Part shown: one piece after another, positions 6,390 to 16,734 of the stretch
Numbering within the stretch: position 1 is the stretch's first letter
How the letters are laid out: every line of letters begins with the position of its first letter
Origin: Fusobacteriaceae bacterium
Lineage (GTDB): Bacteria; Fusobacteriota; Fusobacteriia; Fusobacteriales; Fusobacteriaceae
Direction: 5' to 3'
Assembly (NCBI GenBank): GCA_016938425.1
Contig: JAFGUR010000083.1
Coordinates: 1-40,737, forward strand
DNA: 40,737 nucleotides
The notes under the pieces: model-generated
Told to the model about the DNA's origin: nothing
What the model saw: the letters and a program-made list of their open reading frames with translations, nothing else
Databases searched by the model: none
Program-made: the position numbers and the translations under genes

Positions 6390-8708
6390 TCACATTGATA
6401 AAAACTTATATATTTCAGTTAATCCAGAATAAACCTTATGTCTATTTTCTTCATTAACAATAACAAGACTAGGTACAGAACGTATATTATATTTTAATGC
6501 ATGTTCGATATTGTCACTTGCATTTATAAAAGTAATATTTTCTTCATCTTTCAATAAATTTTTAGCTTCTGGGCACTTTGGACATGTTTCTGTAGTAAAA
6601 AGATATTTATATATAATTTCAGAATTTTTATTCTCTTCGCTGTCTTCTGAATATTTAGTATATTCTTTTCTCATCAAATACTCTGACTGTTTCCCATCAT
6701 TCCAATGCTTTATTGGTCTGTAATAACCTGTAATTCGACTGTATACCTCTGTTTCTTCTGAACAATGAGGGCAAACAAATTGTTCCCCTTCAAGGTATCC
6801 ATGAGTTTTACAAATAGAATAAGTTGGAGATATTGTAAAATATGGAACTCTAAAATTTGAAGCTATTGTTTTTACAAGTTTTGAACATGTTTCCCAATCT
6901 TTTATTTTTTCTCCTAAAAACCCATGAAATACGGTTCCGCCAGTAAATTTACTTTGAAGTTTTTCTTGAATTTCAAGGGCATCAAAAATATCATCTGTAT
7001 AATTTACAGGCAAATGACAAGAATTTGTATAAAAAGGTGACTCTCCATTTTTAGAAGCAAGTACAATCTCTTGATATTTTTCTTTATCCATTTTCGCAAG
7101 TCTATAGCTTGTACTTTCTGCAGGAGTTGCCTCTAAATTATATAAATTCCCTGTTTCTTCTTGAAAATCTGCTATTTTCTCTCTCATAAATTCCAATACT
7201 TTTTCTCCAAATAATCTTCCTCTTTCACTAATAAGACTACTTTTTATCCACGAAGCATTTAAAGAACATTCATTTAGCCCAATTAATCCTATTGTAGAAA
7301 AATGTGTATTAAAATTATTTAGATATCTCTTTGCATAAGGATATAATCCGTCATCCATAAACTTAGTTATTACTTTTCTTTTGATTTCTAATGAACGTTT
7401 TGCAATGTTCATAATATAAGAAAGTCTTTCAAAAAATTCTTCCTCATTTTCTGAAGTGAAAGAAATTCTAGGAAGATTTATTGTAACTACTCCAATTGAA
7501 CCAGTTTTTTCTCCACTTCCAAAAAGTCCTCCAGTTTTTTTCTTCAATTCTCTTTTGTCCAATTGAAGTCTACAACACATGGATCTTACATCTCCGGGAT
7601 TTAAATCTGATTTTATAAAATTTTGAAAATATGGAGTTCCATATTTTGATGTCATATCAAATAAAAGCTTTGCATTTTCACTATTCCAAACAAAATCCTC
7701 TGTTACATTATAAGTTGGTATTGGATATTGAAAACCTCTTCCGTTAGCGTCTCCTTCAAGCATTATTTCTATAAATGCTTTATTTATTATGTCCATTTCT
7801 TTTTGACAATCTTTATATTTAAAATCTACTTTTTTCCCACCGATAATCGCATATTCTTCTGATAAATCCTTTGGTACAGTCCAATCTAGAGTAATATTGG
7901 AAAAAGGAGCTTGAGTTCCCCACCTACTTGGAGTATTTACTCCATAAATAAAGGATTGTATACATTGTTTCACTTCTTTATATTCCATATTATCCTTTTT
8001 TATAAAAGGAGCTAAATATGTATCAAAGCTTGAAAAAGCTTGAGCTCCAGCAAATTCATTTTGCATTATTCCTAAAAAATTAACCATTTGATTGCATAAA
8101 GTCGATAAATGTTTTGCAGGGCTTGAAGTTATCTTCCCATTTACGCCTCCCAAACCTTCTTCTAAAAGCTCTCTTAAAGACCAACCTGCACAATAACCAG
8201 TTAACATTGATAAATCATGTAAATGAAAATCTCCATTTCTATGAGAATTTGCAATTTCTTCGTCATATATTTCTGACAACCAATAATTAGCAGAAATTGC
8301 TCCAGAATTATGTAATATAAGTCCTCCAATAGAATAGGTTACTGTAGAATTTTCTTTAACTCTCCAATCCTCTGTATTTATATAAGAATCTACTACTTTT
8401 GAGTAATCCAAAATGTTTTTCATATCTCTTAGTTTTTCTCTTTGCTTTCTGTATAAAATATATGCTTTGGCAACTTTGCTATACCCTACATCACTAAGAA
8501 CTTTTTCTACTGAATTCTGTATTTCTTCAATGTCAACTTTTCCGTGTATAATTTTCTCTTGAAAATCAGCAGTAACTCTCAAAGACAATATGTCTAGCAT
8601 GTCTTCAGAAAAACAAGTTTTCGTTGCATTAAATGCTTTTTCAATTGCTTTTTTTACTTTAAACACTTGAAAATCATCAATTTTCCCATTTCTTTTTACT
8701 ACTTTCAC
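6390..8708 (-). CDS. nrdD: Anaerobic (class III) ribonucleoside-triphosphate reductase with C-terminal thioredoxin-fold extension
   Basis: N-terminal ATP-cone (VVKRNGKIDDFQVFKVKKAIEKAF). Thiyl-loop CCRLQLD. Zn-ribbon CPHC. Glycyl-radical motif SRITGYY (nt 6720-6737). An extra ~73 aa tail carries CPKC (nt 6573-6584) and a cis-Pro-like SVPS. Confidence 0.92.
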   Translation of the reverse strand: MKVVKRNGKIDDFQVFKVKKAIEKAFNATKTCFSEDMLDILSLRVTADFQEKIIHGKVDIEEIQNSVEKVLSDVGYSKVAKAYILYRKQREKLRDMKNILDYSKVVDSYINTEDWRVKENSTVTYSIGGLILHNSGAISANYWLSEIYDEEIANSHRNGDFHLHDLSMLTGYCAGWSLRELLEEGLGGVNGKITSSPAKHLSTLCNQMVNFLGIMQNEFAGAQAFSSFDTYLAPFIKKDNMEYKEVKQCIQSFIYGVNTPSRWGTQAPFSNITLDWTVPKDLSEEYAIIGGKKVDFKYKDCQKEMDIINKAFIEIMLEGDANGRGFQYPIPTYNVTEDFVWNSENAKLLFDMTSKYGTPYFQNFIKSDLNPGDVRSMCCRLQLDKRELKKKTGGLFGSGEKTGSIGVVTINLPRISFTSENEEEFFERLSYIMNIAKRSLEIKRKVITKFMDDGLYPYAKRYLNNFNTHFSTIGLIGLNECSLNASWIKSSLISERGRLFGEKVLEFMREKIADFQEETGNLYNLEATPAESTSYRLAKMDKEKYQEIVLASKNGESPFYTNSCHLPVNYTDDIFDALEIQEKLQSKFTGGTVFHGFLGEKIKDWETCSKLVKTIASNFRVPYFTISPTYSICKTHGYLEGEQFVCPHCSEETEVYSRITGYYRPIKHWNDGKQSEYLMRKEYTKYSEDSEENKNSEIIYKYLFTTETCPKCPEAKNLLKDEENITFINASDNIEHALKYNIRSVPSLVIVNEENRHKVYSGLTEIYKFLSM

Positions 8709-8862: not shown

Positions 8863-8948
8863 TTGTTAATGGTTGAGAGTATCTTAAAATAAGTTTAATT
8901 TTTTTGCTTTTACTTAGTAGTTTATGTTTTTTAAGATGGATATTTTAT

Positions 8949-8977
8949 TTGTAAATCTTTATTTAGTTGAGTATACT
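8949..8977 (+). promoter_or_regulatory. Sigma70-like promoter of the ATPase-HNH cassette
   Basis: TTGTAA (8949-8954), a 17-nt spacer, then TATACT (8972-8977), about 33 nt upstream of the ATG at 9011. AT-rich DNA gives many such matches by chance. Confidence 0.4.
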
Positions 8978-9010
8978 TAAAATTGAAAATTAAGTTTTTT
9001 GGAGGAAAAT

Positions 9011-10777
9011 ATGGAGTTACTTTATGTGTGGGTAGAAGAGTATGGGAATATTAGGAGACAGGGGTTTAACTTTAGTCCAAATTATGATATTAATTATGAC
9101 CCCGATACAAAAGAATTAAAATGTGAAAAAAAAGAAATGCAACAACCAAAATTATTTGGAGATAATATTTCCAATATTACTGCTATTGTTGGAAAAAATG
9201 GGAGTGGGAAGAGTACTTTGCTTCAAATTATTATGTTAATAAAAAAGGAGCAATCTATATATAAAAATATGTTTGCTTGCATTTTTAAAAATTATAAAGG
9301 GAAATTGTATTCCAGTAATAAGCAAATACTTACAGCAAATTTTTTAGAGTTAGAAGAAGAATCAAACTTTGAATTAATATATTACTACGATAATATCGAC
9401 GATTCCATAAAATACAATCAGTCATATAATGGGGAGGTTTTTTCTGATATATCTACGGGTTATTTGTTAAACCCCAAATCTTCTTCCATGGAAAGTTCGA
9501 ATAAATTGTTATACGATTATCATTTTGAAGAATTAAAAAAACAAGTTAATTTTTTTAAAGATAAACATAATGTATTGAAAAAATTGCCTTATAATAAATA
9601 TTTTGAATCTTTAAAATCAATAAAAACAATTAGAGTAGAAATATATCAATTTAGTGATATTAAAATGATAAAATACCATGAGAAAAATGTTGAAAAAATC
9701 ATAAAAAAAATAAATTTCAAGGAATTGAACAAAGAATCTTTTGCAGGGAAATTAGTAGAAGAATTATTAAAGAGATTAATATATGATTTATGTGGAGATG
9801 AAAGTTCACAAGAATTAATTAAAGATTTACTCGATGAAAAGAAAAAAGTAATAGGATTAAATTCATTTCTAGATATATTAAATGAAAAACAATTAGCAAC
9901 TACATTTATTAGTAATGATGAGAGTATTAAGATTATAAAAAAAATTTTGAAAAAAGAAAGTATATTTAAAGAAATTCATAGTATTCTTAATGATTCTATA
10001 GAAATAAATTTTTTAACAGACGGTGGAGAACCAACACAAAAATTTAATGATTTTATCAATGATTTTCAAAGAATACAATCTATATTTAAGTTTAGATGGA
10101 CAGTTTTACTAAGTTCCGGAGAATTAACATTATTAAAAATAATGGGAAGATTCCATTCTACGGGTGGAAACTATTTCTCACCATTAATTTTATTGGATGA
10201 ACCTGATACTACTCTTCATCCAGAATGGCAAAGAAATATGGTTGCATTTTTAAATTCTTATTTTTCAGAAATTTATTATAATTGTGCTGAGGAACGAAAT
10301 AAAAACATCCAAATAATCCTGACTTCCCACTCTCCCTTTATCGCAAGCGACTTACCGAGAGAAAATGTGATTATGCTTAATACTGATAAAGATGGAAATT
10401 GCGTTGTGAAGAATGACAAAGATATAAAAACTTTTGGAGCTAATATTTTTGATTTGTACACAGACGCTTTCTTTGTTGAATCTAGTTTTGGAGAGTTTGC
10501 AAAAGGGAAGATAAAAGATGTTGTAAAGGATTTGACTCTAAATGAAAAAGGAGAGTATAGTGATTTATCGAAAGAAAGAATTAAAGAAATTGAATATATT
10601 ATTAATTCTATTGGAGAAAAACTTGTAAGTGCTAAATTAAAAAAATTATATGAAGAATATAGAAATAATAAAAACAGTGAAGAGTATAAAAAAGAACAAT
10701 TAAAAATGTTACAAGAAAAACTTGGACTCTCTAATGAACAAATGATAAACATTATCAAAACTGGTGATTTACAATGA
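9011..10777 (+). CDS. ABC/SMC-type P-loop ATPase (AAA_15/AAA_21-like; Septu PtuA-like)
   Basis: Walker A GKNGSGKST (9191-9217). About 300 aa K/E/I-rich helical insertion. Signature-like LSSGE (10109-10123). Walker B LILLDEPD (10184-10207). H-loop TSHSP (10322-10336). Start placed at ATG 9011 after GGAGGA (9001-9006) rather than the track TTG at 8999. Confidence 0.75.
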   Translation: MELLYVWVEEYGNIRRQGFNFSPNYDINYDPDTKELKCEKKEMQQPKLFGDNISNITAIVGKNGSGKSTLLQIIMLIKKEQSIYKNMFACIFKNYKGKLYSSNKQILTANFLELEEESNFELIYYYDNIDDSIKYNQSYNGEVFSDISTGYLLNPKSSSMESSNKLLYDYHFEELKKQVNFFKDKHNVLKKLPYNKYFESLKSIKTIRVEIYQFSDIKMIKYHEKNVEKIIKKINFKELNKESFAGKLVEELLKRLIYDLCGDESSQELIKDLLDEKKKVIGLNSFLDILNEKQLATTFISNDESIKIIKKILKKESIFKEIHSILNDSIEINFLTDGGEPTQKFNDFINDFQRIQSIFKFRWTVLLSSGELTLLKIMGRFHSTGGNYFSPLILLDEPDTTLHPEWQRNMVAFLNSYFSEIYYNCAEERNKNIQIILTSHSPFIASDLPRENVIMLNTDKDGNCVVKNDKDIKTFGANIFDLYTDAFFVESSFGEFAKGKIKDVVKDLTLNEKGEYSDLSKERIKEIEYIINSIGEKLVSAKLKKLYEEYRNNKNSEEYKKEQLKMLQEKLGLSNEQMINIIKTGDLQ

Positions 10778-11811
10778 TTAAAATAGATACAAGTAAAATT
10801 AATAATTGGAAAGATATAAATAAAAAGCATAGTGAATGGTTTTTTGAAGAATTTAAAAGTAATTTTTTGGAACAATTAGGAAATTATAAAAATCTTGAGG
10901 AGAAAGAAAAATGGTTTTTATCCTCTTTGTTTGAAGTTTCAGAAAAAATGGATGAATCTAACATAGATTTATTCACTAAAGAAATCAAAATCTTTTCAGT
11001 TACTAAATTTGATAAGGTTAAACTGGAATTCTTAAAAACTGAATATCAGTCTTTAAGGGATGAAGCAAAAGAAGTTATAAAAAACTGTTTTAAATATGAT
11101 AAGAGATTTATTAATGATAATATTGAAAAATGGTGTAGAAATCTTTTCTTATATTTGGCAAATATAGTAGTATGTCCTTATTGTAATAGGCAATATATTA
11201 CTAAGTTTAATGAACAGGAGAAAGAAAAGAAGAGGTCAACAGCAGACCTTGACCACTTCTACCCACAAGCACAATATCCATATTTAGCGTTGTCTTTATA
11301 CAACTTTATTCCCAGTTGTCATACTTGTAATTCTACTATGAAAAATCAAGATAAAATTGGGATAGATACTCACATCTACCCATACACCGATTCTATGGAA
11401 GAAGATATAAAGTTTACTATAGAAACAGATAGTTTTATGGATAATGTTTTTACTAAAAACCAAAACTTAAATATTGATATAGATGTTATTAGTACAGGTG
11501 TAGAAAAAACTAAGAAAATTAAAAATAGCTTAGAAACTTTTAAACTAAAGGAAGTATATAAAAATTCCCACAGTAAATATGTAGGAGATTTAATACATAA
11601 TTTTCAAAAGTACCCAAAATCCTATACAAAAGCACTTGGAGAGATTTTCTTAGAAGAAAATAAGAATTCAAAGGAACACCAAGAAAAACTCCAAATCCTA
11701 AACGATAATTTCCAAGAAATTATCAAAAAACCCTATACGGACAAAATAGAAAAAGGCGAACCCCTCGCCAAACTCACAAAAGACATAATGGAAGAACTTG
11801 GAATCAAATAA
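10774..11811 (+). CDS. HNH endonuclease-domain protein (Septu PtuB-like)
   Basis: ATGA start/stop overlap with the ATPase gene. HNH core CPYC (11173-11184), DLDHFYP (D-H at 11251-11256), CHTCN (11317-11331). It is flanked by ~130 aa N-terminal and ~150 aa C-terminal regions with no motif I recognise. Confidence 0.7.
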   Translation: MIKIDTSKINNWKDINKKHSEWFFEEFKSNFLEQLGNYKNLEEKEKWFLSSLFEVSEKMDESNIDLFTKEIKIFSVTKFDKVKLEFLKTEYQSLRDEAKEVIKNCFKYDKRFINDNIEKWCRNLFLYLANIVVCPYCNRQYITKFNEQEKEKKRSTADLDHFYPQAQYPYLALSLYNFIPSCHTCNSTMKNQDKIGIDTHIYPYTDSMEEDIKFTIETDSFMDNVFTKNQNLNIDIDVISTGVEKTKKIKNSLETFKLKEVYKNSHSKYVGDLIHNFQKYPKSYTKALGEIFLEENKNSKEHQEKLQILNDNFQEIIKKPYTDKIEKGEPLAKLTKDIMEELGIK

Positions 11812-11815
11812 GCTC

Positions 11816-11853
11816 AAGAAGATTTTTAAAAAAATCTTCTTTTTTATTTTTTT
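11816..11853 (+). terminator. Intrinsic terminator of the ATPase-HNH cassette
   Basis: 12-bp stem AAGAAGATTTTT/AAAAATCTTCTT starting 5 nt after the stop codon, followed by a long T-run. Confidence 0.75.
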
Positions 11854-12085
11854 GAAAATAAAAAAATAAATAAAAGGAAATACCTTTATTTTTAGTAGAA
11901 CTCTTATGGAATTTATTTTATTTGAAAATTTCAACTTACTTAAAAAACCCTTCAAAAGTTTCAGACAATAGAACTACGATAAAATCTCTGTAGTTACTTT
12001 AGCTACTTTATAATAGAACTCTTACAACAAAATCTCTAAAATAACTACTAAACACATTATTAATTTTTAAGGAGATGATGATTTA

Positions 12086-12727
12086 GTGGAAAATGAATTA
12101 GCTGGAAAAAAAGTTGCCGTTCTTGTAGAGACAGAATATATTCATGACGAGATTACCTTTTATGAAAAATATTTTACTTCTCTAGGAGCTCAAGTTGACT
12201 TTATCACTTATCTATTTGGTAAACCTGAAAGAACTATAATATGTGATATTACTGACACAGAAAACCCTGCAGAACATATTCACACAATGAAAGTCTATAA
12301 AGATTTTGATGAGTCCAATCCTAATGATTATTCAATTGTTCTTGTTGGTGCCAATTATGTTGCTTGCCGACTTAGAGAAATTATGCCTATGGGTAGCTTG
12401 TCCAATGTTGATAAACTTAGAACTCCTCCTGCTGTTAGGTTTTTTGCAAGTGCAATGATGAACCCTAACATTGTAAAAGGCGCTTTATGCCACGGATTAT
12501 GGCTATTAACACCTGTTCCAGAGTTACTAAAAGGTAGAAGAGTTATTTGTCATACCGTTGTCTTAGCTGATATTTATAATGCTGGTGGTGTTTACGTTCC
12601 AGACCCTTCACATGTTGTAGTTGATGAAGATTTGGTCACAGCTCGTTCTGCTCAAGACTTAGAAATTTACGCAGAAAATATAATGAAAACATACAGAAAT
12701 CTTATTGAAAAAAAGGAGACTATATGA
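12086..12727 (+). CDS. DJ-1/PfpI family (class I glutamine amidotransferase-like) protein
   Basis: Nucleophile-elbow motif GALCHGLWLL, then LKGRRVICHT and VVVDEDLVTARSAQDL, typical of DJ-1/PfpI. GTG start 11 nt after AAGGAG (12069-12074). Confidence 0.6.
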   Translation: MENELAGKKVAVLVETEYIHDEITFYEKYFTSLGAQVDFITYLFGKPERTIICDITDTENPAEHIHTMKVYKDFDESNPNDYSIVLVGANYVACRLREIMPMGSLSNVDKLRTPPAVRFFASAMMNPNIVKGALCHGLWLLTPVPELLKGRRVICHTVVLADIYNAGGVYVPDPSHVVVDEDLVTARSAQDLEIYAENIMKTYRNLIEKKETI

Positions 12728-14202
12728 AATTAAATAAAAAAGCTTTGGACAATGCTAAATATTTTGATATTAAAAAATTAATTGATAATCATCCAGACCC
12801 AGAAAAATGGATTAAACATATAGATGAAGATTTAATGAAATATTGGATGACTGAAGAAGCAAAGGACTTTGATTTAAATTTATTTTCAACTTATAGAGCC
12901 AACAATGGAAAGAAAATTTCAAAAAATCCTAGTGAATATCCAAAAGAAATAGTTGAAGCTCTAAATAGTAATGATACTAAAGGTTTAATTGACCTTGATG
13001 AAAACTATATTAGATCTCATTCTCGCCAAACATTTGGTTATGGAATCGCATACAATATGACTGGAAAAACTGAATATCTTGAACTTTGCAAAAAAGGTGC
13101 TGAAGCTTTAATGCTTGCCTTTGATAAAGAAAATGGAATGTTTACAAAACAAAATAACATTAATGGTGAGTGGAGTGACCCAATTGATAAAAGAACTTCA
13201 CAAGATTTAGCTTATGGAGTAACTGGTATTGGAATGTATTACTATTTGACTCATGATGAAAAGGCTCTATTCAAATTGCTTCAAGCAAAAAATCATATTT
13301 TCAATCAATATTTATCATATGGTAGAGGATATTTTACTTGGTATCCTAAAACAAAAGATAATCAAACAGATGACCAAGTTGAAATTGTTGCTCAACTTGA
13401 CCAAATTTATGCATATATGATTTGGCTTACTCCTGCATTGCCAGAACCATATCAAACTGATTGGAAAAATTCTCTTAAAGAAATTGTAAATATAATAATT
13501 ACTAGATTCTATAGTGAAAGATATGGATTCTTCTGGGGAACAAATACAGATACTCAGTCTATGCAATTAGGAACTGACCATACAGATTTTGGGCATTCTA
13601 TAAAAACTATGTGGTTAATTTATGAAGTAGGACTTCTTACAAAAGAAATCGCTTTTGTCGATTTTGCTAGACCAAAAATTGATAAAATATTAAAGAAAGC
13701 CTATATAGAAGAAAATGGTTCGTGGGCAAGAAGATTTAGAGAAGATGGAACCCTAGATAGAGACAAAGAATGGTGGGGCCTTGCTGAATTAGACCAAGCT
13801 TGTGCGATACTTTCTCTAAATGACCCTTCTTATCTATCATATTTAAACAATACTTATGATTATTGGTTTAAACATATGATTGATAAAGAATATGGAGAAA
13901 TTTGGCATATGGTTTTATCAAAAGATGACATGCCAGATATAAAATATCCAAAAATCCATTCTTGGAAAAATTGCCTACATAGTACAGAACATGCTTTATT
14001 TGGTTATATAATAGCAAGTCAAATTAAAAATAAAGAATTTACTCTTTATTATGCTTTTAAATCAAAAGATGATGTTTGCTATAAAAGAGTAGCTCCATAT
14101 CTTTTCAGAGCAAATATAACTAAGGTAGAAGAAATAGAAAGTATTAAATTTATGGAAAATGGAAATAAAAAAATTGCTGTTTCTTATTATTCTTTGCATT
14201 AA
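12724..14202 (+). CDS. N-acylglucosamine 2-epimerase (AGE) superfamily, alpha/alpha-barrel sugar isomerase/epimerase-like
   Basis: ATGA overlap with the DJ-1-like gene. Repeated aromatic-rich helical hairpin pattern. C-terminal KIHSWKNCLHSTEHAL resembles the AGE-family WKgpYH..RA motif. Assignment is by motif memory only. Confidence 0.45.
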   Translation: MKLNKKALDNAKYFDIKKLIDNHPDPEKWIKHIDEDLMKYWMTEEAKDFDLNLFSTYRANNGKKISKNPSEYPKEIVEALNSNDTKGLIDLDENYIRSHSRQTFGYGIAYNMTGKTEYLELCKKGAEALMLAFDKENGMFTKQNNINGEWSDPIDKRTSQDLAYGVTGIGMYYYLTHDEKALFKLLQAKNHIFNQYLSYGRGYFTWYPKTKDNQTDDQVEIVAQLDQIYAYMIWLTPALPEPYQTDWKNSLKEIVNIIITRFYSERYGFFWGTNTDTQSMQLGTDHTDFGHSIKTMWLIYEVGLLTKEIAFVDFARPKIDKILKKAYIEENGSWARRFREDGTLDRDKEWWGLAELDQACAILSLNDPSYLSYLNNTYDYWFKHMIDKEYGEIWHMVLSKDDMPDIKYPKIHSWKNCLHSTEHALFGYIIASQIKNKEFTLYYAFKSKDDVCYKRVAPYLFRANITKVEEIESIKFMENGNKKIAVSYYSLH

Positions 14203-14240
14203 GGATTGATAAGTTAACTGTTATCTGTAAAACTCAAAAT

Positions 14241-14590
14241 TAGTTAGTTGCAAAACTAAAAAAATAATTGTACATAAGTATAAATAGAAAGTCTTGGTTT
14301 TAGAGGATTGGCGAGGAGTAATCCTTGCCATGGGCTTGGGTGCCGTCCTGAATCTCTCCTCTTTCCCTAATGCCGTCAACTTAAGAAAATTTTAAGTATA
14401 ATTTGCTTAAATTATAAGCTCTAATGAAGGTTAAAAAAGTTAAAGCTTCAAGTCTCCCCTTATGAGGGAGTTCTTTAGAATCACAAAATTGATGACATTG
14501 TATCTTTCTCCACTGGAGGTGGTGGAAATCTATAAAAACACAGTTTTTTATATAAAAATAATCAAGCCATTGGAGTTTTGCAACAAACTA
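14241..14590 (+). mobile_element. Family-A MITE-like element, copy A3, carrying a nested family-B MITE
   Basis: TIRs TAGTTAGTTGCAAAACT (14241-14257) and AGTTTTGCAACAAACTA (14574-14590), 16 of 17 complementary. Flanked by near-identical AACTCAAAAT (14231-14240) and AACTAAAAAT (14592-14601). The interior is collinear with the reverse complement of 5608-5857 except for a ~130-bp insertion. Confidence 0.85.
14370..14500. mobile_element. Family-B small palindromic MITE, copy B1 (nested in A3)
   Basis: Ends ATGCCGTCAACTT and AAATTGATGACAT(TG) are imperfect inverted repeats. The element is homologous to 24316-24414, absent from the otherwise collinear A2 copy, and flanked by TA on both sides. Confidence 0.7.
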
Positions 14591-14617
14591 AAACTAAAAA
14601 TATAAGGAGGTATTAAA

Positions 14618-15238
14618 ATGATTTTGTCTACAGAAGTTTTGTTAAAAAGTAATTTGGATAATTTTTTAGTTATTGGTGATGATACTGGATGGATTATTGA
14701 AGAAAACAATGTATCTACAGGATATCACTGGGAAATTCTTCCAGATAACTCCGGAACATATGAAATTATTGAAGATATTGCTCTTCTACCTGCAACTAGC
14801 TTACTTGGTGTCTCTGGTTATAAAATATGGAAAATTAAACCAATTAAAATAGGAACAGGAACTATTTTATTAAATAAATTTGCTCCTGGTAAAACAGATT
14901 CACCTTCCATTACAGATAGTTTCTCTATTATTGTTAGTGATAAAAAATCAAATAATTTAGAAATAGATAATGAATTAAATGCAACAGTAGGAGGATGGAG
15001 TTCTTTCCATGATTTAAGCTCTGAAGAAAAAGCTCTATTTGAAAAAGCTATGATTTCTCTAAAAGGAGTAGATTATGTTCCTTATTCTGTTTCTACACAA
15101 GTTGTAGCAGGAATTAATTATCGTTTTAAATGTACTGCAACAGTAGTATATCCAAATGCAAAACCTTATAAAGCTATTGTTCAAATTTATAAGCCTCTAA
15201 GTGGTGACCCAGTAATAACAGACATTCATAAATTTTAG
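14618..15238 (+). CDS. Two-domain cysteine-peptidase inhibitor: chagasin-like (I42) N-domain fused to stefin/cystatin-like (I25) C-domain
   Basis: N-domain carries the chagasin L2-type motif NVSTGYHW (14708-14731). C-domain carries the cystatin signature QVVAG (15098-15112), preceded by a GG (VGGW), and is collinear with stefin A (QVVAGINYRFK; IYKPLSGDPVIT). No signal peptide. Strong RBS AAGGAGG (14604-14610). Confidence 0.65.
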   Translation: MILSTEVLLKSNLDNFLVIGDDTGWIIEENNVSTGYHWEILPDNSGTYEIIEDIALLPATSLLGVSGYKIWKIKPIKIGTGTILLNKFAPGKTDSPSITDSFSIIVSDKKSNNLEIDNELNATVGGWSSFHDLSSEEKALFEKAMISLKGVDYVPYSVSTQVVAGINYRFKCTATVVYPNAKPYKAIVQIYKPLSGDPVITDIHKF

Positions 15239-15249
15239 TTTTTAAGGCA

Positions 15250-15288
15250 AAAGAGTTCAAATTTTAATAATTTGAGCTCTTTTTTTTA
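15250..15288 (+). terminator. Intrinsic terminator
   Basis: Hairpin AAGAGTTCAAA..TTTGAGCTCTT followed by TTTTTTT, 12 nt after the stop codon. Confidence 0.65.
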
Positions 15289-15462
15289 CTTAACAATGTT
15301 CTTTCTAAGTAAATAAAACTTCAAATTTTCTATAATGAATGACTCTTCATTTATTATAGGATTAATTATAGTTAATTATAATTATTTATTTCTATCCTAA
15401 CCTTGTAATCTTATATTAAACATGTTAAAATTAGTTCTAAAAAAATAAAAAGGAGTTAATTT

Positions 15463-16734
15463 ATGAAAAAATTTCTTTTAGTATCTATTATTGCTTCAAT
15501 TAATTTAATCGGTGCTACTATCGACCACATTATGAATTACACTGTAGAATATAATGCAAATCCTTCTTTACAAGGAGCTATTAGTGAAGAATCCTCTGTA
15601 AATTACAATCCAGCAGGATTAATGGAACTTGAAAATGGAACATACCTTAATGGAGGACTTCAAGTTGCAATAGGTCATCAATGGATGGAGTATAACAATG
15701 AAGAATATGGGGCTAACCATGTTTCACCAATTCCAAATTTGTCAGTTTATAAAAAAGATGACAAAAAAGCACTATATTGGACTCTCGGTGGAATTGCTGG
15801 GGGAGCAGAGTTAGATTATAAAGATGGAATTGCAACTTATGATGTTCTAGGTAATTCAAGTTATAGTTTCATAGGAACAGCTAGTGATGATAGCTGGGCA
15901 AAGGGAAGTAGTACATATTACCAAACAACTTTAGGAAGTGCTTTTAAACTTAATGATAAATTTTCTATGGCTATAGGTGGAAGAGCCGTTTATGCCATAA
16001 GAGATTTCCAAGGTGAGTTAGAAGTTGAAGGTGCTGGATTAGGTACTGGACAAACAGCAACTATTGACGCAGAGCGTAAAGCAACTGGATTTGGAGCTCA
16101 ATTAGGATTAAACTATAAAGCAACTGATAAATTAAATATAGGTTTAAGATATGATAGTAAAGTTAAGTTAAATTTTAAAACTAAATCTACAGAAAGTAAG
16201 ATTAATTTGACAGCTTTAAGCACTACATTTGGATATTCAAATCTTTATGGTGAGTATGCTGATGGTGCTAGTGGATATAGAGACTTACCTGCTATACTTG
16301 CACTAGGAATTCAATATGATTTAACTGATAAATATACTATTTATTCAGGTGCAAATTATTATTTTAATAAAGAAGCTAATATTGATGAAAAATTTGTAAC
16401 TGCTGATAAAACGATTGATAGTAGAAAATATAAAGATGGTTGGGAATTATCTATAGGAAATCAATATAAACTAACTGATAAATTTTCAATTCTTTCTGGT
16501 GTAAACTATGCAAAAACAGGAGCTTCTTCTGTAAATTATAGAGACTCTGAATATGCTATAAATTCTCTTATGATTGGATTAGGAGCAAAATACAAATATA
16601 ACGAAACTTTAGAATTTGTGGGAGCTCTTTCTCATTATTTTTATGAAAGTGATGAAGGGAAAACTCTTGGTAAAACTGTTAAGTATAATAAAGACATAAC
16701 TAACATTGGATTTGGACTTACAAAAAAAATATAA
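15463..16734 (+). CDS. FadL/OmpP1/TodX-family outer-membrane transport protein
   Basis: Signal peptide. N-terminal hatch motif NYNPAGL. Alternating beta-strand pattern rich in G/Y/N. About 420 aa. Confidence 0.7.
   Translation: MKKFLLVSIIASINLIGATIDHIMNYTVEYNANPSLQGAISEESSVNYNPAGLMELENGTYLNGGLQVAIGHQWMEYNNEEYGANHVSPIPNLSVYKKDDKKALYWTLGGIAGGAELDYKDGIATYDVLGNSSYSFIGTASDDSWAKGSSTYYQTTLGSAFKLNDKFSMAIGGRAVYAIRDFQGELEVEGAGLGTGQTATIDAERKATGFGAQLGLNYKATDKLNIGLRYDSKVKLNFKTKSTESKINLTALSTTFGYSNLYGEYADGASGYRDLPAILALGIQYDLTDKYTIYSGANYYFNKEANIDEKFVTADKTIDSRKYKDGWELSIGNQYKLTDKFSILSGVNYAKTGASSVNYRDSEYAINSLMIGLGAKYKYNETLEFVGALSHYFYESDEGKTLGKTVKYNKDITNIGFGLTKKI

Follow-up and report, generated by a model that had tools for sequence, protein, structure and literature searches.

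Can two adjacent genes for an ATPase and an HNH nuclease, set among housekeeping functions in a member of the Fusobacteriaceae, form a self-contained defence system against phages, and if so, of which family? The question is raised by a cassette in a contig of 40,737 nucleotides (nt; GenBank assembly GCA_016938425.1, contig JAFGUR010000083.1), which was analysed as a whole and is called the window in the following. Both genes lie on the plus strand: gene A (9011–10777; 588 amino acids, aa) encodes a PtuA-like ABC/SMC-type ATPase matching the PADLOC family PDC-M62A, and gene B (10774–11811; 345 aa) a PtuB-like HNH nuclease matching PDC-M62B. The initial annotation, made from the nucleotide sequence, had described the pair as a Septu-like defence candidate with room for a "divergent or undescribed subtype". 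The candidate status is supported by the PADLOC profiles, by profile and fold matches of the ATPase to PtuA, by the pairing of both genes across phyla, and by defence genes among the neighbours of homologous pairs. As to the subtype, the pair does diverge from canonical Septu, but it is not undescribed: judged by sequence, the cassette is a member of PDC-M62, a clade of the Septu superfamily that PADLOC has already catalogued. The most likely reading, with a probability of roughly three in four, is that of a Septu-family module for defence by abortive infection or nuclease action. The gene structure, the intact catalytic motifs, the family membership, the conserved pairing and a patchy, accessory distribution are documented below; the anti-phage function would follow from the kinship with studied systems.

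Relationship of the two proteins to known defence families

Gene A carries the motifs of an ABC/SMC-type ATPase. These are Walker A (GKNGSGKST, 9191–9217, with G61, N63, G66, and K67 invariant in 88 homologues), the ABC signature LSSGE (10109–10123; S368 invariant, G370 and E371 at least 90% conserved), Walker B followed by an LHPxWQ motif (LILLDEPDTTLHPEWQ, 10184–10231, with Walker B itself, LILLDEPD, at 10184–10207; D396, E397, H403, and W406 invariant), and the H-loop TSHSP (10322–10336; H440 and S441 at least 90% conserved, P442 invariant). The stretch LILLDEPDTTLHPEWQ aligns with LIDEIELHLHPKWQ in PtuA of retron Ec78 and with LIDEVDMFLHPAWQ in Septu PtuA, and TSHSP aligns with TTHSP of PtuA. 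All motif coordinates that the initial annotation had given for A and B translate in frame to the expected peptides, and these motifs are more than chance matches, because no catalytic or zinc-binding residue varies among 88 homologues of A and 69 of B. As the Pfam models AAA_21 (1.8e-19) and AAA_15 (1e-9) both score above their cut-offs as well, the assignment of A to the ABC/SMC-type ATPases holds.

Both proteins match PDC-M62 over their full length and the canonical Septu families in part, as a profile search with the PADLOC models revealed. PDC-M62A (PDLC04735) aligns with residues 1–571 of A on positions 1–620 of 633 (5.4e-77, 258 bits), and PDC-M62B (PDLC04743) with residues 1–344 of B on positions 1–325 of 328 (2.5e-60, 203 bits). 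The PtuA model (PDLC00293) matches A partially (1.5e-26), its best stretch being confined to residues 367–583, and the PtuB match of B is likewise partial (1.8e-7). A was also matched by the models for AriA, AbiLi, and GajA, and the PDC-M01 matches are weaker than those to PDC-M62. When a family profile of A was compared with PDB sequences, PtuA of retron I-A (9kjx, 3.6e-22) and of Septu (8ee4, 5e-18) ranked first, followed by AriA (6.5e-20), Rad50, and SMC. The AlphaFold2 model of A (predicted local distance difference test, pLDDT, 82.7; predicted template modelling score, pTM, 0.83) gave a similar order in a Foldseek search of the PDB: PtuA chains occupy the first 28 places (E 7e-11 to 6e-7, probability 1.00), with PtuA of retron I-A and of Septu at the top and SMC, Rad50, and AriA behind.

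Since both the profile and the model of A also match Rad50 and SMC heads, the cassette could conceivably be a housekeeping pair for DNA repair or chromosome maintenance, in which a Rad50/SbcC/RecF-like ATPase cooperates with a nuclease. We regard this as the least probable of the alternatives weighed here. PtuA chains stand above SMC and Rad50 in the profile as well as the fold search, the pair is patchily distributed across phyla, has plasmid-borne and prophage-like copies and is missing beside nrdD in close relatives, and its internal domains are hypervariable, unlike those of core repair genes.

For gene B, the affiliation is carried by an HNH (beta-beta-alpha-metal) core with two CxxC pairs (CPYC...DLDHFYP...CHTCN, 11173–11331), in which C134, C137, D160, H161, N177, C182, C185, and N186 are invariant in the 69 homologues. 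Searched as a single sequence, B has no match in the PDB. With a family profile, the sole match was the HNH protein 9n69_F of retron I-A (8e-4), which is restricted to the HNH core and corresponds to residues 37–93 of that 227-aa protein; in B, the core starts at residue 134. The description of B as an HNH/PtuB protein thus stands with regard to the invariant core and the partial matches to PtuB and 9n69_F, but it does not extend to the curated Pfam and TIGR02646 thresholds, both of which are missed.

Several results weigh against a Septu affiliation or a defence function of the cassette. A scores 45.5 bits on the NCBIfam PtuA model NF041760, an equivalog built for PtuA of retron Ec78 with a cut-off of 500, and B remains below the cut-offs of Pfam HNH (18.2 versus 21.4 bits) and of NCBIfam TIGR02646 (23.5 versus 52.15 bits). 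The Foldseek TM-scores of A, normalised to the query, are low (0.22–0.30), which is probably due to a differently placed insertion in the model. For B, the AlphaFold2 model has a mean pLDDT of 67, with 33–47 in the HNH core, and Foldseek returned noise (E > 7) and no fold match; with so weak a model and a noise-level search, neither B as a whole nor its N-terminal domain gains support from the fold. The fold comparison therefore finds PtuA first for A, but nothing for B. Furthermore, PDC systems, and with them the PDC-M62 clade, are explicitly untested candidates (bioRxiv 10.1101/2024.01.29.577857), and the pair lies outside any defence island in the window, where none of the 31 other open reading frames (ORFs) has a defence profile match. 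Finally, in a second species it is syntenic and looks vertically inherited.

There are 145 PDC candidates, which the authors of PADLOC obtained from genes located inside BREX, DISARM, or type I restriction-modification systems (bioRxiv 10.1101/2024.01.29.577857). For the Bacillus cereus group, 203 PDC-M62 calls have been described that fall on genes also called as Septu, and Septu is the name that DefenseFinder gives to such systems as well (PMC11811056). This overlap is indirect evidence that the experimentally validated Septu systems of Bacillus may belong to the clade. The cassette resembles PDC-M62 in that both proteins match the profiles end to end and in its gene order and adjacency, here with a 4-nt overlap. 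It is, however, a distant member from a Fusobacteriaceae-like metagenome-assembled genome: the same models give 629 and 362 bits for clearly homologous pairs from megaplasmids of the B. cereus group, compared to 258 and 203 bits here, and B is ~33% identical to the Bacillus B protein over residues 102–345. One of these megaplasmid pairs adjoins a DUF4435 protein and another AAA protein. The family as a whole is large. Of the 1.84 billion representative proteins in a library with clusters at 50% identity, 3851 match B at E ≤ 1e-10, so that the cassette adds one example from a Fusobacteriaceae lineage to an already catalogued family. Its value lies in being a compact, intact, stand-alone representative of a PADLOC candidate from an under-studied phylum.

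With the Septu system of E. coli (structures 8EE4, 8EE7, and 8EEA), the cassette shares two co-directional adjacent genes in the order ATPase and HNH nuclease, the arrangement of Walker A, signature, Walker B-LHPxWQ (DE-x4-LHPxWQ), T(S/T)HSP, and a helical C-terminal domain in A, an ATPase fold closest to PtuA, and a stand-alone organisation lacking reverse transcriptase and the non-coding RNA (ncRNA) msr/msd. The differences concern the size of both proteins and several of their parts. A has 588 aa compared to 465 aa in PtuA, with a larger and hypervariable insertion, and its signature ends in Glu (LSSGE), whereas Septu PtuA has Leu at the equivalent of Gln361 of Ec78 (PMC12819146); by our reading of the A/PtuA alignment, Gln361 corresponds to the last position of the signature motif. 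With 345 aa, B has an extra N-terminal helical domain of ~120 aa that the solved chain 9n69_F lacks, while PtuB proteins measure ~220–250 aa and have their HNH motif close to the N-terminus, and the C-terminus of B (GEPLAKLTKDI) is distinct, the similarity to PtuB being confined to the HNH core. The proteins also differ from Septu in falling short of the curated PtuA (NF041760) and TIGR02646 cut-offs.

The PtuA and PtuB proteins of the type I-A retrons (Ec78/Eco7 and Ec83; 9N69, 9KJX, and 9NNH) include the best profile and fold matches of A and, with the TIGR02646 family protein 9n69_F, the only solved match of B. Unlike in these retrons, none of the called genes of the window has a reverse transcriptase domain, and a Rfam scan of its whole length, aimed at retron and other ncRNAs, gave no match to msr/msd or any other RNA family; a retron is thereby ruled out. 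Related ABC ATPase heads further occur in PARIS (AriA/AriB), Gabija (GajA), OLD, and AbiL. The nuclease partner or domain of these systems is of the TOPRIM type, in contrast to the HNH partner found here, and they were rejected because neither protein has a TOPRIM match in Pfam or PADLOC.

Conserved and variable parts of the pair and a proposed mechanism

The conservation of A is highly uneven. Residues 1–80 and 361–500 are conserved, and the ATPase parts flanking the insertion reach mean identities of 35–74% to homologues, while the mostly helical insertion between Walker A and the signature (residues ~81–360; 9251–10090) is hypervariable, with a mean identity of ~10%. Two homologues (P0122 and P0131) are 90–92% identical to A over the first 75–77 aa and 44–57% over the C-terminal 200–230 residues, and no BLAST similarity to A was detected in their middle part. 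In locus L004, which belongs to the second species mentioned above, residues 462–587 of A are 89% identical, but residues ~391–461 only 45–51%; B is 80–91% identical. The N-terminal helical domain of B (residues ~1–120; 10774–11133) varies in length and sequence as well, residues 21–100 being poorly conserved with large insertions and deletions among homologues. AlphaFold2 models it with a pLDDT of ~90 over residues 11–100, and it has no match in Pfam or Foldseek. Opposed to these hypervariable parts, the A insertion and the B N-terminal domain, are the fixed ones. In A, they comprise the ATPase motifs and the C-terminal domain, and in B the HNH core and, at the C-terminus, the family signature GEPLAKLTKDI (11755–11787); most residues of this signature are invariant and the rest at least 90% conserved.

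The C-terminal domain of A (residues ~495–588; 10493–10774) is charged and helical, with helices predicted by AlphaFold2 at residues 495–508, 521–533, 537–554, 557–571, and 575–584. The initial annotation had regarded this tail as unassigned. It aligns with the C-terminal part of Ec78 PtuA, and thus with the domain whose helices bind PtuB (PMC13376987). By this comparison, it would be the docking site for B.

These patterns suggest that the pair consists of two evolutionary modules, one formed by B together with the C-terminal docking domain of A, the other by an exchangeable ATPase head with its insertion. The exchangeable module probably carries surfaces for sensing or oligomerisation, and the insertion is our candidate for either role. 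A more far-reaching view, which we consider doubtful, holds that the PDC-M62 clade is a mechanistically distinct Septu branch of exchangeable parts, in which a conserved effector module, formed by B with its extra N-terminal domain and the C-terminal domain of A, has recombined with highly divergent ATPase heads and insertions that set the sensing. If this were true, specificity would evolve by domain swaps in gene A and not by point mutation, and the clade could cut or respond to something else than Septu does, for which nicking of DNA and cleavage of tRNA-Tyr are known. A map of fixed versus variable parts would in any case guide tests of how Septu-type systems sense phages.

How Septu and PtuAB work has been described for several systems (PMC12819146; PMC13096335; PMC13376987). 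In stand-alone Septu, an ATP-bound PtuA oligomer holds PtuB, DNA nicking by PtuAB drops with rising ATP, and the complex reacts to phage proteins; in retron Ec78, released PtuAB is toxic to the host (PMC12819146). We propose the same scheme for the cassette, because the pair has all the parts that correspond to PtuAB of Septu and retrons. A and B would be produced together from one transcript through translational coupling, A would bind ATP and oligomerise via its heads and the helical insertion, and its C-terminal helical domain would keep the HNH nuclease inactive. A phage cue, either a phage protein or a fall in ATP, would then disturb this assembly, with the fast-evolving insertion of A probably acting as the reader. 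The freed or activated A-B complex would subsequently cut nucleic acid, which in the studied relatives is DNA (by nicking) or host tRNA such as tRNA-Tyr, and phage replication would be halted at the expense of host growth, that is, by abortive infection. For the cassette itself, complex formation, trigger, substrate, and anti-phage phenotype are all predicted by analogy.

Occurrence in other genomes and position in the window

Scanning one genome per species with two peptide patterns, one of them GEPLAKLTKDI, yielded 42 loci in the Fusobacteriota, Clostridia and other Bacillota, Bacteroidota, Campylobacterota, Pseudomonas, and Gastranaerophilales; the closest named genome with the cassette is "Fusobacteriaceae bacterium Go_Inlet_bin_30". 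In 34 of the 35 informative loci, which are those with sequence upstream of a full-length B, an A homologue immediately precedes B and often overlaps it by 4 nt. To either side of the pair, the two nearest genes were scanned in 37 loci (134 proteins). They include type I methyltransferases in at least five loci, specificity subunits in three, type IIG/DrmMI-like enzymes in three to four, McrBC in two, AbiEii in two, and MADS genes in three, but also ordinary metabolic genes such as purD, IMPDH, ALAD, and a tRNA synthetase. The co-occurrence with defence genes that one would look for in a defence module is thus seen in other genomes, where the pair often stands beside restriction-modification genes.

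The same neighbourhoods allow another interpretation, namely that the pair acts as an accessory to restriction-modification or BREX-type systems and needs a methylase or restriction partner, in which case the cassette would be an orphan and possibly inactive. Besides the many homologous pairs that have type I or type IIG restriction-modification genes as neighbours, this would agree with the discovery of PDC systems embedded in such systems (bioRxiv 10.1101/2024.01.29.577857) and with the best NCBIfam match of A, TIGR04435, a restriction system-associated AAA ATPase (1.6e-21). The latter match, however, reaches 76.7 bits against a cut-off of 300, and many loci, including the cassette, have no restriction-modification genes nearby. 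Moreover, the share of Septu systems that lie embedded in Hma systems is only 0.7% (bioRxiv 10.1101/2024.01.29.577857), so that Septu occurs mostly outside Hma loci. We therefore consider a dependence on restriction systems improbable and retain the Septu-type module as the preferred reading.

The closest homologue of the pair in the plasmid collection resides on a 705-kb replicon of Cetobacterium somerae (NZ_CP092520.1, 693212–696273; locus L127), where it is flanked by ParB and VRR-NUC genes on one side and by a KAP-family P-loop NTPase and phage terminase and head genes on the other, and thus lies in a prophage-like region. The phage records contained one short match to the HNH core, and the PHROG matches belong to families of unknown function or to generic HNH families. 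The copies in this region and on the Bacillus megaplasmids, together with the host toxicity of released PtuAB in retron Ec78, would fit a selfish, toxin-antitoxin-like addiction module, in which the ATPase keeps a toxic nuclease in check and whose main role would be the maintenance of the plasmid, prophage or island carrying it, not the defence of the host. This explanation is, if anything, a shade less probable than the dependence on restriction systems, as the cassette lies on the chromosome between housekeeping genes, and the 40.7-kb window contains no genes of mobile elements; besides, roles in addiction and abortive infection can coexist.

A second ATPase of the same family follows B in six loci (A-B-A'), with no second nuclease detected (L008, 8482–10500; L011, 11104–13089; L014, 10798–12861; L016, 10709–12634; L033, 10726–12720; L034, 10726–12726). 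In the five of these loci that were scanned (all but L034), A' is a full-length PDC-M62A match with up to 548 bits. Loci L015 and L025 contain tandem A-B A-B pairs. The A-B-A' layout may represent a three-gene variant of the system, and in the doubtful view of a Septu branch of exchangeable parts it would hint at hetero-oligomeric sensors.

Among further plasmid matches, one from Klebsiella and one from E. coli were considered as canonical PtuB for a profile-profile comparison and rejected, since the ATPase is fragmented in one and the other is an unannotated pair of 506 and 310 aa; the plasmids of Bacillus mycoides KBAB4 are absent among the plasmid matches listed. The unannotated pair, from E. 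coli H240 (NZ_OL790696.1, a record of 4.8 Mb despite its plasmid label; locus L129, 3210–5675), resembles the family. Its 506-aa protein is an ATPase, and the 310-aa protein has an N-terminal helical region and a CPYC...LDHF...CSSCN core, but not the GEPLAKLTKDI tail. This pair may be a relative of the PDC-M01 type.

Within the Fusobacteriaceae, the cassette was found in three assemblies of the same species, that is, in the window and in loci L002 and L046, the latter being ~97% identical to the window on a contig that ends at window position 9078, 68 nt into gene A. The second species (L003 and L004), ~80% identical in housekeeping genes, has the 3' part of A and B with 88.5% nucleotide identity. 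In L004, B is followed by an ORF of 189 aa and then by the genes for Tex, a GAF kinase, and IleRS, and the window genes at 12086–16734 are missing; the segment downstream of the cassette is variable. The 189-aa ORF between the nuclease gene and Tex (L004, 1854–2423) gives a faint Y1 transposase signal. Besides, three independent contigs from other assemblies end inside gene A at positions flanking the insertion (L046 at 9078, L004 and L003 at ~10000–10100), which could result from strain-level diversity breaking the assemblies or from a repeat.

Whether the pair is core or accessory was assessed at nrdD. None of the 80 nrdD loci fetched has a detectable A or B ORF (the contig of L046 ends 68 nt into A). 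Three relatives have enough sequence upstream of nrdD to judge the position (L048, L049, and L051). Their NrdD is 77–85% identical, they have pgpH-ybeY-dgkA upstream of nrdD, and the cassette is absent there, so the pair is not core at this site. In these loci, pgpH-like, ybeY, and dgkA are co-directional before nrdD (L048, 1294–4564; L049, 139–1847; L051, 1931–5233). That nrdD has parted from pgpH-ybeY-dgkA in the window lineage and is now divergent to the cassette indicates a local rearrangement. Taken together, the distribution supports an accessory element that is stable within one small lineage: the cassette has a slightly lower G+C content than its flanks (24–27% versus 28–31%; window 27%), is patchily distributed across phyla and is absent beside nrdD of relatives.

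In the window, nrdD (6390–8708, minus strand) is divergent from the A-B pair and accompanied by a radical-SAM activase gene on the same side. Directly downstream of the cassette (12086–16734) are four unrelated genes, encoding a DJ-1/PfpI protein, a GH47-like protein, a chagasin-type peptidase inhibitor, and a FadL-type outer-membrane porin, and farther on this side follow the genes for Tex, a GAF-histidine kinase, IleRS, GlyQS, chemotaxis proteins, and others. Gene annotation thus confirms the position originally described for the pair, divergent from nrdD and upstream of unrelated genes. Since none of the 31 other ORFs matches a PADLOC model at E ≤ 1e-8 and Rfam has no match in the window, the pair stands by itself between housekeeping genes: no reverse transcriptase, DNA methylase, or ncRNA accompanies it, and it is not part of a defence island. 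The absence of a reverse transcriptase, ncRNA, or methylase partner, as proposed at the outset, is upheld by these searches and by the gene annotation.

Gene borders and local sequence signals

The ORF list gives two starts for gene A, a TTG at 8999 and the ATG at 9011. The ATG is the likely one, because it is preceded by a GGAGG at 9001–9005 and homologues begin with MELLY..W. This GGAGG, read from the sequence, is the ribosome-binding site, 5 nt before the ATG. At the junction of the two genes, the ORF list and the sequence agree with the ATGA overlap reported initially (10774–10777), in which the stop codon of A and the start codon of B would provide for translational coupling; a 4-nt overlap is repeated in at least 11 homologous loci.

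The flanking transcription signals fared less well than the initial annotation had suggested. The sigma-70-type promoter candidate (TTGTAA-17-TATACT, 8949–8977, plus strand) is present, but with 9 of 12 consensus positions matched it does not exceed chance in this A+T-rich region, where promoter-like sites are not enriched (18 versus 23.4 ± 5.1 expected from shuffles). It marks at most a plausible location for a promoter inside the 302-bp divergent intergenic region. Behind B, an intrinsic-terminator-like hairpin with an 11-bp A+T-rich stem and a T run (11816–11853, plus strand) is moderately supported by folding against shuffles (−11.3 kcal/mol, z = −2.93, equalled by 1 of 200 shuffles), but calling it "strong" was an overstatement. 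A consensus scanner missed it, because the stem has fewer than three G-C pairs.

The lack of a statistically supported promoter, the isolation of the pair, and the contigs of relatives that end inside gene A could be taken to mean that the cassette is a decaying or silent remnant, in which the ORFs look intact but expression or function has been lost. This appears very improbable to us. Both ORFs are full length compared to the family profiles and have kept all invariant catalytic residues, the ribosome-binding site, the overlap for coupling and the terminator accompany them, and the 84% identity of B in a species with a ~83% identical Tex implies purifying selection. As a minor observation, an imperfect 28-nt direct repeat flanks the cassette (8941–8968 and 11914–11941; 79% identical, the first 11 nt identical). 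Its copies are placed where an insertion scar would be expected, but we take it to be probably a chance two-copy match in DNA of 27% G+C.

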